Shown here in pieces: positions 2,978 to 8,177 of a DNA stretch of 12,896 bases (positions are counted from its first letter, which is position 1; every line of letters starts with the position of its first letter). The stretch covers positions 1 through 12,896 of the IMG/VR virus record IMGVR_UViG_2700989170_000001; one strand, given 5' to 3'. The notes beneath the pieces are model-generated. The model was not told the DNA's origin. It did not search any database and saw nothing but the letters and a program-made list of their open reading frames with translations. The stretch is from a virus (Duplodnaviria; Heunggongvirae; Uroviricota; Caudoviricetes). Position numbers and translations under genes: made by a program.

Positions 2978-3414
2978 GCAGCCCGATCTCCCCATCGCGC
3001 TTTCCATTCGAGAGCCAGTCGCGCTTCGTCTGACCACTTAACGCCACGCTCTGTACCGAATGCCTGTATAAGCTCTAATAGCTCCGCAAATTCGCTTACA
3101 CGCATCCTGCTGGTTGACTGGCCTATTACCACAAAGCCATTCCCGGCAAGGTTAGGAACAACGTCCTGCTGCTTTAATGCTGCGGTAAACACACACTTCC
3201 AGCTTTCTGCATCCAGCCAGCGACCATGCCATTCAACCTGACGCGAAACGTCACCAAGGCAAGCCCAAAGCTTCCGATTTTGGTCTAAGCTGCGGTTGCG
3301 CTCCTGAATGGTTACTACGATTGGTTTGGTTGGGTCTGGAAGAATTTGCTGTACCGCGTGAATAGCGTTTTGCTGATGTGCTGGGGATCGAATTTCAAAG
3401 GTTAGTTTTTTCAT
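2974..3414 (-). CDS. ninB: Recombination protein NinB (Orf family, 146 aa)
   Basis: The 146-aa product ([34 protein letters not shown]...) appears essentially identical to lambda NinB as I recall it. Confidence 0.9.
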
Positions 3415-3607
3415 GACTTCCCTCTCTAACAGATTTCAGGTTATTCCACTCCGTTACCGCACTGCGATAATTCGCGGCCGCCACAGCGGCGTGGTTAGCG
3501 CAGTAGATTTGGCACCCGTTCTCCATGTCGAATATTGTCGGTGATTTTCCGCATTTACATTTTTTGGCACGCGGTGCGTCTGAACACATTCCGTTAACGG
3601 TGTCCAT
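3395..3607 (-). CDS. Hypothetical Cys-rich small protein (70 aa) at the position of lambda ren
   Basis: The ORF has a strong RBS (GAGGGGGA 5 nt upstream) and several Cys residues (CSDAPRAKKCKCG...GCQIYCANH). It overlaps the ninB start by 20 nt and follows a terminator hairpin. I recognise no family. Confidence 0.45.
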   Translation of the reverse strand: MDTVNGMCSDAPRAKKCKCGKSPTIFDMENGCQIYCANHAAVAAANYRSAVTEWNNLKSVREGSHEKTNL

Positions 3608-3630
3608 CAGGATCCCCCTCGTTCTTAATC

Positions 3631-3662
3631 CAATAAAAAAGGGCTACTGTGTAAATAGCCCC
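3631..3662 (-). terminator. Intrinsic terminator downstream of the helicase gene (tR2-like position)
   Basis: Minus-strand stem GGGCUA/UAGCCC (plus 3641-3646 and 3656-3661) with a 9-nt loop, followed by UUUUUUAUU (plus 3631-3640). It lies between the helicase stop and the next ORF. Confidence 0.5.
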
Positions 3663-3691
3663 TGTTATTAGCTCAGTGATGTAGATGGTCA

Positions 3692-5128
3692 TCAGAATCC
3701 TCCTTTCTTCTTGGACTGCGGCTCCTCGCGTTCACGGCGGCGCATTTCAGCAGACTGTTGGTCTGTGTCATAAATAGCGCCATTTGCCTGAATGCAATAC
3801 ACCGTGCCGGTATTGCCATGACGATTGAGACGAAGGATTAGTTCGGTTTCACCAGGTGGAACACTGTCATCAAAAGCACCTTCACGATGGATCCCCACCC
3901 AATAATCGCAATCCTGTTCAATCTGCCCTGTATCTCGTGAGTCACTTGGTAATGGGCGTTTATTGGTTCGGCTTTCCAGTGCGCGGTTAAGCTGCGTCAG
4001 AAGCACAACAACGCAATCAAGCTCTTTGGCAAGGTTCTTCAGTCCTTTGGTGATCATGCCGTAAGCAAGGTCGTTGCGATCGGCCTTCTCAGCGGTCATT
4101 AGTGTCAGGTAATCGACCAGAATCATGCCAACACATCCTTTTTCTCGCTTGATTCGACGGCTTTCGCTGACGATTTGAGCCAGAGATAATCCCGGCGTGT
4201 CGTCGATGTAAAGCAGGTCGATTTCACTCAAACGATTAGCTGTTTCGATCGCCCTGTTGAAGTCACCATCGTAATCACCCTGATAGCCGTCATCAGCGTC
4301 ATTTGTCGCCGGAAGGTAAAAAATATTCGGGTTAACACCAGACTTCTGCCCTACCAGTTTTTCCAGTATCTGGTCTCCTGGCATTTCAAGGCTGAACATC
4401 AGAGCGGGCTTTTTCTCATGCACTGCGCAGTTGATTGCCATCTGGCTGTATAGCGTCGTTTTCCCCATCTTAGGGCGAGCGCCAATGACAAACAGAGAGC
4501 CTTTCACCAGACCTTTCGGTGACAGCATCCTGTCCAGCGATGGGATCCCTGTGCTCATTCCCCGTTGTTCGCCTGATGGGTCAAATCGCTTCTCAAGGTC
4601 GCTAACCCAGTCTTCCATGACCTCACCAAATGAGCGAAGTCCGCGACGCGATCCGGTTTTTGCATGGTCTGTCAGTTGCGTGAAAATCGCCTGAATAGCT
4701 TCGTACTTCTGCGTTGCAGTCATTCCGTTGCGGGAATAGAGCAATTCCGTCGCTTCAGTCATGCGGTTGATGGCGTAGCGTTCCATTGCGGTTTCACGAA
4801 CCTGCATTGCATAGGCAACGATGTTTGCTGCGCTTGGCGTGTTCTTTGCGATCTCAGCGATATAAGCAAAACCGCCAACAGACACCGTTAACGATTTGCG
4901 CTCCAGTTCATCGAAAAGCGTCAGGCCATCTACTGGCTTTTGCTCCCGGTGCATTCTGGTTATTTCTTCGAAAAGAATTTTGTGTGGTCGGCTGTAAAAT
5001 GAATCAGGCTTCAGCATCGCCAGAACTTTCTGGACGCGCTCACTGCTGTCATCATCCAGAAGCAATCCACCAATCACCGCCTGCTCTGCCTCGATGCTAT
5101 GGGGCGGCGCATAAAAATTATCGGTCAT
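3692..5128 (-). CDS. DnaB-family replicative helicase (P-loop; P22 gp12-like), about 478 aa
   Basis: The N-terminus has the DnaB-type motif PPHSIEAEQAVIGGLL; Walker A is GARPKMGKT; a Walker B-like ILVDYLTLM follows. The ATG at 5128 has SD GAGGGTG upstream; the ORF-track start at 5143 is a GTG. The start overlaps the stop of the O-like gene by 11 nt. Confidence 0.9.
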   Translation of the reverse strand: MTDNFYAPPHSIEAEQAVIGGLLLDDDSSERVQKVLAMLKPDSFYSRPHKILFEEITRMHREQKPVDGLTLFDELERKSLTVSVGGFAYIAEIAKNTPSAANIVAYAMQVRETAMERYAINRMTEATELLYSRNGMTATQKYEAIQAIFTQLTDHAKTGSRRGLRSFGEVMEDWVSDLEKRFDPSGEQRGMSTGIPSLDRMLSPKGLVKGSLFVIGARPKMGKTTLYSQMAINCAVHEKKPALMFSLEMPGDQILEKLVGQKSGVNPNIFYLPATNDADDGYQGDYDGDFNRAIETANRLSEIDLLYIDDTPGLSLAQIVSESRRIKREKGCVGMILVDYLTLMTAEKADRNDLAYGMITKGLKNLAKELDCVVVLLTQLNRALESRTNKRPLPSDSRDTGQIEQDCDYWVGIHREGAFDDSVPPGETELILRLNRHGNTGTVYCIQANGAIYDTDQQSAEMRRREREEPQSKKKGGF

Positions 5129-6177: not shown

Positions 6178-6419
6178 TTGGTGAGTCCATCAAGCGCATA
6201 CTTAAAAGCCCTGCTAATCGGACTGATGTCTGATGCCATTCCGAAAGCACACAAGACCGAAGCAATAAATCTCCAGTCCGTTCTGCTTATCTTCGATTCA
6301 TGACAGCCAATCATCTTTGCCAGACCGCGCTGGGTAAGCGTTGACAGGTTGATGAGTAAATCTGTTTCTGCGCGATCAACGTCGCGCTGTGATAGTTTGC
6401 TGTAACTTGTTTGTTCCAT
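6123..6419 (-). CDS. cII: Transcriptional activator CII (98 aa)
   Basis: The C-terminus LTNKKRPEATERSEQIQMEF and the HTH region KMIGCHESKISR resemble lambda CII. It sits between cro and the replication genes. Confidence 0.85.
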   Translation of the reverse strand: MEQTSYSKLSQRDVDRAETDLLINLSTLTQRGLAKMIGCHESKISRTDWRFIASVLCAFGMASDISPISRAFKYALDGLTNKKRPEATERSEQIQMEF

Positions 6420-6483
6420 TTCTTACTATTTCCATAGGTAAATAATCACTAATACTCATCTTTCGATGAGTGATTAATTAGTT

Positions 6484-6517
6484 ACCGCGTTGTCGGCGGT
6501 GCAGATTGATAAAGAGC
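6484..6517 (-). promoter_or_regulatory. nutR-like N-utilisation site (boxA plus boxB hairpin)
   Basis: Read on the minus strand: boxA GCTCTTTAT (plus 6509-6517), an 8-nt spacer, then boxB ACCGCCGACAACGCGGT (plus 6484-6500; 5-bp stem ACCGC/GCGGT with a GACAA loop core, P22-like as recalled). It lies between the cro stop and cII. Confidence 0.6.
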
Positions 6518-6528
6518 TGATCCGCTTA

Positions 6529-6744
6529 TTAAGCGGCTTTGTGTTCCGGCGGGAACACGTCATCAAGACTGACTTTTGCGCCTAACTTGTTTAGGCACGC
6601 AACAAGAGCACGGCATGTTTTAAGGTCTGGGAAGCGACGACCAGATTCCCAATGTCCGATAGCTCCCTGTGTGCATCCAACCGCCTTAGCAAGTGTTGTT
6701 TGAGAGATATTCAGTGACTCTCGATATTTTCGTAGGTTGCTCAT
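6529..6744 (-). CDS. cro: Cro-like HTH repressor (71 aa)
   Basis: The HTH is QTTLAKAVGCTQGAIGHWESG. The ATG at 6744 has GGAGGG upstream. It is divergent from cI and followed by nutR and cII. The ORF-track start at 6915 would overlap the operators and cI. Confidence 0.75.
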   Translation of the reverse strand: MSNLRKYRESLNISQTTLAKAVGCTQGAIGHWESGRRFPDLKTCRALVACLNKLGAKVSLDDVFPPEHKAA

Positions 6745-6770
6745 ATGCCCTCCATAGTAACCATGAAACA

Positions 6771-6849
6771 ATAATACGATATGTACTTTTGGAATGCAAA
6801 CAAAAAATACATCTTGTGCATGGATGGTTTTAGTACAGAGCGTAATAAT
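6771..6849. promoter_or_regulatory. Right operator/promoter region (OR with PR; PRM not located)
   Basis: PR candidate on the minus strand: -35 TTGCAT (plus 6794-6799), 17-bp spacer, -10 TATTAT (plus 6771-6776). Operator-like sites are TACGATATGTACTTT (6775-6789) and TTTAGTACAGAGCGTA (6829-6844), sharing the AGTACA-N3-CGTA core also seen in OL. Confidence 0.5.
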
Positions 6850-6861
6850 AAGGATATGAAG

Positions 6862-7515
6862 ATGAAATGGTATGAACTGGCTAGATCCAGAATGAAAGAA
6901 CTCGGCATAACTCAAGAGAAGTTAGCTGAAGAGCTTGGTATGACGCAGGGTGGAATTGGTCACTGGTTGCGCGGATCTCGTCATCCATCTCTTGACGAGA
7001 TTGGTGTGGTGTTTAAATACCTTGGTATTGATAACGTCTCATTCAACCACGACGGTACATTTTCACCTGTTGGCGAATACTCATCTGCCCCCGTTAAAAA
7101 ACAATATGAGTACCCTGTTTTTTCTCATGTTCAGGCCGGGATGTTCTCGCCTGAGCTTAGAACCTTTACCAAAGGTGATGCGGAGAGATGGGTCAGCACA
7201 ACCAAAAAAGCCAGTGATTGTGCGTTTTGGCTTGAAGTTGAAGGTAATTCCATGACCGCACCAACAGGATCCAAGCCAAGCTTTCCTGACGGGATGTTAA
7301 TTCTCGTTGACCCTGAGCAGGCTGTTGAGCCAGGTGATTTCTGCATAGCCAGACTTGGTGGTGACGAGTTTACCTTCAAGAAACTGATCAGGGATAGCGG
7401 TCAGGTGTTCCTACAACCACTAAACCCGCAATATCCAATGATCCCATGCAATGATAGCTGTTCCGTAGTAGGGAAAGTTATCGCCAGCCAGTGGCCTGAA
7501 GAGACATTTAGTTAA
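6862..7515 (+). CDS. cI: CI-type prophage repressor (N-terminal HTH, C-terminal S24/LexA-like autopeptidase), about 217 aa
   Basis: The HTH is [23 protein letters not shown]. There is an Ala-Gly site (VQAGMF), a GNSMTAP serine motif and a downstream FKKL lysine motif. The ATG at 6862 has AAGGA 7 nt upstream (6856 is an alternative). The ORF-track start at 6781 would lie inside the operator region. Confidence 0.85.
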
Positions 7516-7546
7516 CAGCCTCACCACTCTAAAACACACAACAATA

Positions 7547-7575
7547 ACCCGACCTTAGCGTCGGGTTTTCTTTTT
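7547..7575 (+). terminator. Intrinsic terminator downstream of cI
   Basis: A 7-bp perfect stem ACCCGAC/GTCGGGT (7547-7553 and 7560-7566) with a 6-nt loop is followed by TTTCTTTTT. Confidence 0.6.
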
Positions 7576-7626
7576 CCAAAATATAAATCAATAAAATACA
7601 AAGTGTTATAAAAAACTAACCACATT

Positions 7627-7669
7627 TAGAACATTTTGTATTAACTCAATAAAGTACACATCGTACTAT
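7627..7669 (+). promoter_or_regulatory. Left operator/promoter region (OL with PL)
   Basis: PL candidate: -35 TTAACT (7641-7646), 17-bp spacer, -10 TACTAT (7664-7669). The operator AAAGTACACATCGTA (7651-7665) is, in reverse complement, a 14/15 match to the OR site at 6775-6789. A weaker site is AGAACATTTTGTA (7628-7640). Confidence 0.5.
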
Positions 7670-7715
7670 TTAGCCATCAGCAGGAAGCTGGAAGCCAAAC
7701 GGAACAGATTGGCAG

Positions 7716-7749
7716 GCTCTTTAACTTCGATGGGGCGCTGACAAAGCGC
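7716..7749 (+). promoter_or_regulatory. nutL-like site (boxA plus boxB)
   Basis: boxA GCTCTTTAA (7716-7724) is followed by boxB GCGCTGACAAAGCGC (7735-7749; stem GCGCU/AGCGC with a GACAA pentaloop, as I recall for P22 boxB). It lies in the PL leader, about 120 nt upstream of N. Confidence 0.6.
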
Positions 7750-7868
7750 AAACAGATACCAAACGAGATGGGTTTGGCGGTGATGTGAATTGCAGCTGCA
7801 ACGACAGCAACCAGAAGATCAGCACCTGGCGCATCACCACCAAAGCCATTTCACATGAGGAAAATATC

Positions 7869-8177
7869 ATGACGGTAATCGTGTACGGGAAATCAACATT
7901 TGCAGGAAATGCCAAAACTCGCCGTCATGAGCGGCGCAGAAAGCTGGCTATCGAGCGTGATGCTATATGCAACATCATCGATTCGATCTTCGGCACAGAC
8001 AGTGAGGAACCTGTTCAGGAAGCCCCGAGAAAACGTTTAATCCTTTCTGAAAAAGCAATATCACTCGGCAACATTCGTAACCAAAATACCGACGAATGCA
8101 GTGGAAGTATTTGCCTGCCAAACGTAGCTCTTTACGCGGCAGGCTACCGGAAATCAAAACAACTGACAGCCAGGTAA
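7869..8177 (+). CDS. N: Antitermination protein N (P22 gp24-like, arginine-rich motif), 102 aa
   Basis: The N-terminus MTVIVYGKSTFAGNAKTRRHERRRKLAIER carries the arginine-rich RNA-binding motif and resembles P22 N as I recall it. The ATG at 7869 has GAGGA upstream. The ORF-track start at 7785 would overlap nutL. Confidence 0.8.
   Translation: MTVIVYGKSTFAGNAKTRRHERRRKLAIERDAICNIIDSIFGTDSEEPVQEAPRKRLILSEKAISLGNIRNQNTDECSGSICLPNVALYAAGYRKSKQLTAR

Follow-up and report, generated by a model that had tools for sequence, protein, structure and literature searches.

The locus considered here raises two linked questions: whether a short sequence that recurs on both sides of a prophage repressor gene constitutes the operators read by that repressor and its Cro partner, and, if so, which immunity type the operators define. 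The window, by which we mean the whole stretch of 12,896 nucleotides that was analysed, corresponds to the early region of a lambdoid prophage and has the reversed orientation.

Genes and Promoters of the Immunity Region

On the minus strand of the window lie cro (6744..6529), cII, O, a DnaB-like P, ninB, rusA, and Q, and the order on the plus strand is cI (6862-7515), a terminator (7546-7577), and N (7860-8177). Pfam identifies CII alongside cI, Cro, and N. The core of the region is a divergent pair, made up of a repressor gene encoding helix-turn-helix and S24 domains and a small gene for a Cro-like helix-turn-helix protein. The repressor comprises 217 residues when read from the ATG at 6862, with further in-frame ATGs at 6856 and 6820, and consists of an N-terminal HTH_3 domain and a C-terminal Peptidase_S24 domain (Pfam). 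Residues 82-216 are nearly identical to the C-terminal domain of lambda cI (3bdn, E 2e-96), and the context of the Ala-Gly site, VQAGMF, is as in lambda. In its N-terminal domain the protein shows a weak alignment with lambda cI and is unrelated to it in detail.

Cro is a 71-residue protein (Pfam HTH_3, E 4e-12) with the recognition helix TQGAIGHW, and it is 100% identical in the Stx1-converting phage AP005153 and in phages 2B8, 2G7b, and EC.P3. It shares 35% identity with the N-terminal domain of cI, and the helix TQG(A/G)IGHW is common to the two, which fits a predicted switch in which both proteins read the same operators, as in phage 434. The best match of Cro (6532-6744) among solved structures is PDB 28tn, a "lambda repressor-like protein" of 82 residues (E 4.5e-17, residues 1-69), so that a closely matching structure may be available as a template for Cro proteins of this family.

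A consensus promoter scan of the window detected PR, on the minus strand at 6771..6800, with a -10 element TATTAT (6776..6771), a -35 element TTGCAT/TTTGCA (6800..6794), and a spacer of 17-18 bp; its orthologue in AP005153 is annotated as "putative major rightward promoter." The same scan did not detect PRM or PL, the latter falling below threshold, and these two assignments therefore rest on position and on annotated orthologues. The putative PRM, read from the sequence on the plus strand at 6820..6848, would have a weak -35 element ATGGAT (6820-6825) and a -10 element TAATAA (6843-6848), and its counterpart in AP005153 is a "putative maintenance promoter for CI." Transcription from it would start near the ATG at 6856, so that the cI mRNA is possibly leaderless. 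PL, likewise read from the sequence on the plus strand (7641..7669), has a -35 element TTAACT (7641-7646), a 17-bp spacer, and a -10 element TACTAT (7664-7669); it can be matched, base by base, to the pL annotated in HK620 and to the promoter annotated in AP005153. A conserved leader, nutL, and N follow it, and the presence of N (Pfam N_peptide) downstream identifies the upstream promoter as PL. Whereas the -35 element of PL is TTAACT in the window, it is TTGAC(T/C) in nearly all relatives (31 of 33 distinct OL haplotypes); the changed base, 7643, is also position 17 of the operator OL2, described below. The TTAACT element may represent a PL-down allele in this prophage.

Between cI and PL, a terminator scan located an intrinsic terminator on the plus strand (7546..7577), with an 8-bp stem containing 5 G-C pairs followed by a T-run. 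It resembles tIMM, which is annotated at the equivalent place in HK620. The leader downstream of PL, in which the HK620 record annotates nutL, contains nutL at 7715..7749 on the plus strand, made up of a boxA-like sequence, GGCTCTTTAAC, and a boxB hairpin, GCGCTGACAAAGCGC (7735-7749), which we take to be identical to the boxB of P22 nutL. The antiterminator N (plus strand, 7860..8177; 105 residues, N_peptide E 8e-40) carries an arginine-rich motif, GNAKTRRHERRRKLAIER, that is presumably of the P22 type. Together, a boxB and an N motif of this type point to an origin of the N/nut module different from that in the Stx-phage relatives; in the AP005153 record, N is annotated as "similar to phage HK97 N." An Rfam search of 6300-8000 matched zero families, nut sites having no model in that collection.

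A 17-bp Dyad at Six Sites

The original prediction was founded on a 15-nucleotide sequence beside cro that agrees at 14 positions with the reverse complement of one beside PL, and this match is real: TACGATATGTACTTT is found at 6775-6789 and TACGATGTGTACTTT is the reverse complement of 7651-7665, both at the coordinates originally given. In a repeat search the match widens to 20 nucleotides at 90% complementarity (6770-6789 against 7651-7670). Its register, however, lies ~2 bp away from the dyad axis, and the motif AGTACA-N3-CGTA that had been derived from it does not hold, the symmetric unit being AGTACA-N3-TGTACT within a 17-mer. Four sites had been recognized. All four exist, although the two secondary ones extend over 6831-6847 and 7627-7643 rather than 6829-6844 and 7628-7640, and the number rises to six with the inclusion of two that had been overlooked, at 6805-6821 and 7594-7610. 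The consensus of the six is a 17-bp dyad, A(G/A)TACA-N3-TGTA(C/T)T, present three times at PR/PRM between cI and cro and three times at PL, upstream of nutL and N.

At the cro side, OR1 (6772-6788, TAATACGATATGTACTT) overlaps the -10 element and spacer of PR and has one core mismatch. OR2 (6805-6821, AAATACATCTTGTGCAT), the weakest match, lies immediately upstream of the PR -35 element and abuts the putative PRM -35 element; its TACA-N3-TGTA core contains 1 mismatch. OR3 (6831-6847, TAGTACAGAGCGTAATA), with one core mismatch, lies over the putative PRM -10 element. On the other side of cI, OL3 (7594-7610, AAATACAAAGTGTTATA) is a weak match, OL2 (7627-7643, TAGAACATTTTGTATTA) overlaps the PL -35 element by 3 bp, and OL1 (7652-7668, AAGTACACATCGTACTA) has a perfect AGTAC-N5-GTACT core and overlaps the PL spacer and -10 element. 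The expectation that the sites would overlap elements of PR and PL was thus correct, with OR1 over the -10 element of the former and OL1 over that of the latter. Core mismatches number 0 in OL1, 1 each in OR1 and OR3, 2 in OL2, and 3 each in OR2 and OL3.

The sites are 33 bp (OR1-OR2), 26 bp (OR2-OR3), 25 bp (OL1-OL2), and 33 bp (OL2-OL3) apart, center to center, in the window. Among related loci, the OR2-OR3 distance is fixed at 26 bp in 41 of 41 OR haplotypes and the OL1-OL2 distance at 25 bp in 33 of 33 OL haplotypes. The other two vary, OR1-OR2 from 31 to 34 bp through indels in the A-run between the PR -35 element and OR2 (6789-6805 in the window), and OL2-OL3 from 32 to 34 bp.

Further copies of the motif were sought throughout the window. 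With at most two mismatches, AGTAC-N5-GTACT occurs 8 times, against 2.3 expected, and half of these matches fall in the two intergenic regions. With at most one mismatch, TACA-N3-TGTA occurs seven times in the 12.9 kb, and six of the seven are the sites described above. An unbiased enumeration of all dyads in both regulatory regions found this motif family and no rival to it. A direct repeat, TCAATAAA, that flanks OL1 and OL3 on the upstream side was considered as a possible part of the operators; it is not conserved in relatives and was treated as lineage-specific.

Conservation of the Sites

A position weight matrix (PWM) built from the published Sakai-type operators alone was scanned over the window, with shuffled sequences as a control. 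The six sites are the top six in the window, with scores from 10.9 to 19.4, where the maximum of the shuffles averaged 11.0. Neither this result nor the converse one below is independent of homology, the sites being orthologous sequences. The highest score is that of OL1, and the lowest, 10.9 for OR2, is typical of a shuffle maximum. Conversely, when a PWM built from the window was run over the complete genome of phage Dewey (40 kb), the six highest scores fell on the orthologous sites, an extension to related genomes that the original prediction had proposed; the next match there scores 12.8, and no additional strong sites were found.

The sample used to assess conservation comprised 80 IMG/VR loci with an identical Cro, together with phage loci, and yielded 41 distinct OR and 33 distinct OL haplotypes. 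Positions 2-6 and 12-16 of each site were taken as half-site columns and positions 7-11 as central. Across these haplotypes, 10 of 60 half-site columns are variable, compared with 53 of 135 other intergenic columns (Fisher p=0.0017). Half-site variants are mostly singletons, whereas the central positions carry common polymorphisms. The half-site columns of OR1 are almost invariant in the 41 haplotypes, and common variation in OL1 is confined to the central base (33 haplotypes). The operator half-sites are, then, selectively conserved, although some of this constraint may be owed to the promoters and not to the operators, since the OR intergenic region as a whole is 92% conserved.

Three of the half-site singletons, OR2 G12T, OR3 T13C, and OL2 A14G, come from Klebsiella phage phiKp_30 alone. 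The locus of this phage (LC768498.2, 900-1210) retains the same cro and OR, but a deletion that begins at about codon 21 of cI has removed the remainder of the gene together with OL3 and the left half of OL2, making it the sole phage of the set that lacks cI. Its half-site changes look like the pattern expected of a repressor-less, vir-like natural derivative.

Taken together, the six dyads are very probably the cI/Cro operators of a lambda-like prophage switch of the VT2-Sakai immunity type, for which the grounds are set out in the next section. What was directly observed is the sites and their symmetry, where they lie with respect to genes and consensus promoter elements, that they are orthologous to operators predicted in the literature, and that they are selectively conserved. 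The original prediction was right in its essentials, though not complete. Two other explanations of the repeated sequence would dispense with operators altogether. Both intergenic regions are AT-rich (67% and 58%), and the total of seven TACA-N3-TGTA matches is not far above the 3.8 expected in the window, so that similarity by chance has to be considered; nevertheless, when the two regions, of 117 and 344 bp, were dinucleotide-shuffled, just 1 of 300 trials produced a match at 14 of 15 positions, six of the seven matches are concentrated within 222 bp, and the sites are orthologous and conserved in ~90 loci. Clustering and conservation effectively refute chance as an explanation. Alternatively, the likeness of OR1 and OL1 might reflect shared promoter architecture only, through duplication or convergence of the -10 and spacer sequences of PR and PL. 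That each of the two overlaps a -10 element and 17-bp spacer, and that the two best-matching sites are precisely those embedded in promoters, is what such an origin would produce. It would not account for the recurrence of the dyad at OR2, OR3, OL2, and OL3, which have no promoter position in common, for an internal palindrome that promoters do not need, or for half-sites that are conserved around a variable center, and we regard it as very improbable.

The VT2-Sakai Immunity Type

The original prediction could not assign the operators to a named immunity type. A name is in fact available, for Cro is identical to that of the VT2-Sakai type, as is the helix-turn-helix of cI. The repressor is 97% identical to that of AP005153, with residues 1-43 unchanged, and Cro and the cI DNA-binding domain are the same as those of the type represented by VT2-Sakai and the Stx1-converting phage. 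Comparison with the operators of a phage carrying a homologous cI, suggested earlier as a check, showed that AP005153 has six 17-bp features labelled "putative operator" and that these correspond by orthology to the six sites in the window. With respect to the published or annotated 17-mers, each site differs by 0-3 substitutions, mostly central or at the edge. The placement of PR, PRM, and PL in VT2-Sakai-type phages is as in the window and the half-sites are alike, the substitutions that separate the window from its Stx relatives lying mainly in operator centers and spacers.

The group includes the Stx1-converting phage AP005153, Stx2 II (AP005154), Nil2, 2851, 1717, YYZ-2008, and VT2-Sakai (Sp5), along with the non-Stx relatives Dewey, Louie, vB_EcoP-720R6, and 2B8. 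At the DNA level, the cI-cro region is 93% identical to those of AP005153, Stx2 II, Nil2, 2851, and the PA-series Stx2a phages, and equally so to those of 1717, YYZ-2008, and VT2-Sakai over the segment covering OR and the N-terminal domain. Identity reaches 98%, with OL included, to Dewey, Louie, vB_EcoP-720R6, and 683R2. Among 5426 complete E. coli genomes, the whole 1.4-kb region was found in 183, with 99.9% identity in VR50 and 99.2% in W.

One difference from the Stx phages concerns the layout. In the window, OL comes directly after cI and the terminator (7516-7593), whereas the Stx phages have additional ORFs in between, orf22 among them, that amount to ~1.5 kb, with the consequence that the OL-OR distance is ~0.8 kb in the window and ~2.2 kb in those phages. 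In the RefSeq record of VT2-Sakai, NC_000902, cI is given at 3201-3896 as two pieces, a "c1 repressor protein fragment" and a cI of 510 nt, whereas relatives have a single gene of 654 to 696 nt; this is a frameshift or sequencing error in the record.

The operators of the group have been described before. In Yin 2015 (PMC4587872) the PA-series phages are treated as equivalent to the Stx2a prophage of Sakai, and the operator entries in Table S5 of that paper give the same six sequences, as the "same as operator sequences in E. coli O157:H7 Sakai," citing Fattah 2000. In that table, "OR1-3" denotes the sites beside N (41228-41302 in AP005153) and "OL1-3" those between cI and cro, so that the R and L labels appear to be swapped relative to the gene positions. 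A literature search found no binding or transcription experiment with a cognate repressor of the VT2-Sakai type. The sole electrophoretic mobility shift assay found on VT2-Sakai operator oligonucleotides employed lambda CI as the protein and gave a micromolar apparent Kd (PMC10742460), and a full-text search with the operator strings returned a single match, an irrelevant Drosophila paper.

Relation to Other Immunity Systems

A close parallel to the DNA-binding module of the VT2-Sakai type among other named systems is immC of Salmonella phage L (c2-OR-cro; X94331; also ST64T). The N-terminal domain of c2 is ~60% identical to that of the window cI, its recognition helix is TQGAIGHW where cI has TQGGIGHW, and its Cro starts with the same MSNLRK motif as the window Cro. 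The OR of phage L (X94331, 1568-1644, with 786-832 also noted) has three sites with the dyad A(G/A)TAC...GTA(T/C)T at the same 26/34-bp type of spacing as in the window. Over its whole length, however, c2 is 46% identical to cI, its C-terminal domain being of the P22/434 type and not lambda-like, and only two sites were scored at its OL. These comparisons suggest that the VT2-Sakai type combines a DNA-binding module of the L type with the C-terminal domain of lambda.

Lambda itself shares with the window the divergent cI and cro genes, tripartite OR and OL of 17-bp sites, an OR2 beside the PRM -35 element, and N downstream of PL. It differs in the DNA-binding domain of the repressor and in Cro, which in the window is an HTH_3 protein from a fold family other than that of lambda Cro. 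Operator spacings in lambda are 24/23 and 24/20 bp, compared with 33/26 and 25/33 bp in the window, and the distance between OL and OR is 2.3 kb, compared with ~0.8 kb. The lambda immunity type was rejected as an assignment: the lambda operator consensus (TATCACCGC..GGTGATA-type) has no match in OR or OL, and the alignment of the N-terminal domains is weak.

HK620 presents a different mixture of likeness and divergence. Its repressor helix is TQGAVGHY, its annotated operators, AATACC-N5-GGTATT, have the ATAC/GTAT core in common with those of the window, and the DNA of the PL leader and nutL downstream of OL1 is almost the same. The operators nonetheless differ at base 7 and in the center, cI is 38% identical, and Cro is of the lambda type; the window PWM recognizes one site in HK620, and that weakly.

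The Stx phage BAA2326 (O104:H4) has a lambda-related cI and three OR sites that have been footprinted (PMC5977221). Its repressor has another N-terminal domain and its operators (ATAACTGTGCGTAATG etc.) are other sequences. As a candidate for the same immunity type it was discarded, the loci that carry its OR (ATAACTGTGCGTAATG, ATATCTGCGGTGTTGAC, CCTTTGGTTATATGTAAT) encoding a different, lambda-like cI. In BAA2326, moreover, neither an OL nor an N is identifiable.

Predicted Operation of the Switch

If the six dyads act as proposed, the tripartite OR between cro and cI and the tripartite OL between the cI terminator and N would be bound by dimers of cI and of Cro, whose helices both conform to TQGxIGHW. 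Occupation of OR1 and OL1 would block PR and PL, because these sites cover the -10 elements and spacers, and occupation of OL2 would cover the -35 element of PL. A repressor dimer at OR2, which adjoins the weak PRM -35 element, would be expected to activate transcription of cI, and one at OR3 would cover the PRM -10 element and shut cI off. The near identity of the C-terminal domain to that of lambda leads us to expect dimerization, pairwise cooperativity, and RecA-stimulated self-cleavage of the lambda type, and on the same grounds looping between OL and OR over ~0.8 kb would be possible. Actual binding, affinities, cooperativity, activation of PRM, and transcription start points are all features of this switch that we infer from its sequence.

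The sites could also be true operators wired differently from those of lambda, with OR1 and OR3 filled early, PRM strongly repressed, and the repressor kept at a low level, the "hair-trigger" behavior described for the Stx phages 933W and BAA2326. In its fit to the consensus OR3 is about equal to OR1, and the poorest fit among the OR sites is that of OR2, a pattern like that seen in the BAA2326 experiments, in which OR2 was intrinsically weak and OR3 close to OR1 (PMC5977221). The short, invariant OR2-OR3 and OL1-OL2 spacings, set beside an OR1-OR2 spacing that is long (31-34 bp) and varies, would suit such wiring, but the fixed distances can be explained equally well by promoter geometry. Moreover, affinity is poorly predicted by sequence match, given the influence of central bases and flanks in operators of the 434 and P22 types, and the window does not belong to an Stx phage. 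We consider wiring of this kind rather unlikely. If affinities did track the sequence, autorepression of PRM would set in at low repressor concentrations and the prophage would be a low-repressor, easily induced one, its lambda C-terminal domain notwithstanding, an outcome that we hold to be unlikely and put forward as speculation. Equally speculative is the idea that in double lysogens the repressor, whose C-terminal domain is ~98% that of lambda, might form mixed oligomers with lambda cI. The preferred reading remains that of a lambda-like switch acting through six operators.

Implications

The six operators and the immunity type to which they belong are already described and predicted in public records, and the feature is in that sense an ordinary one; the operators of the VT2-Sakai group have been published as predictions only, and a new kind of system is not at issue. 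What the assignment contributes is biological context. The immunity type determines which phages a prophage excludes, and through it a common non-Stx prophage of E. coli is placed in one immunity group with the Stx2 phage of E. coli O157:H7 Sakai, a phage of clinical importance.
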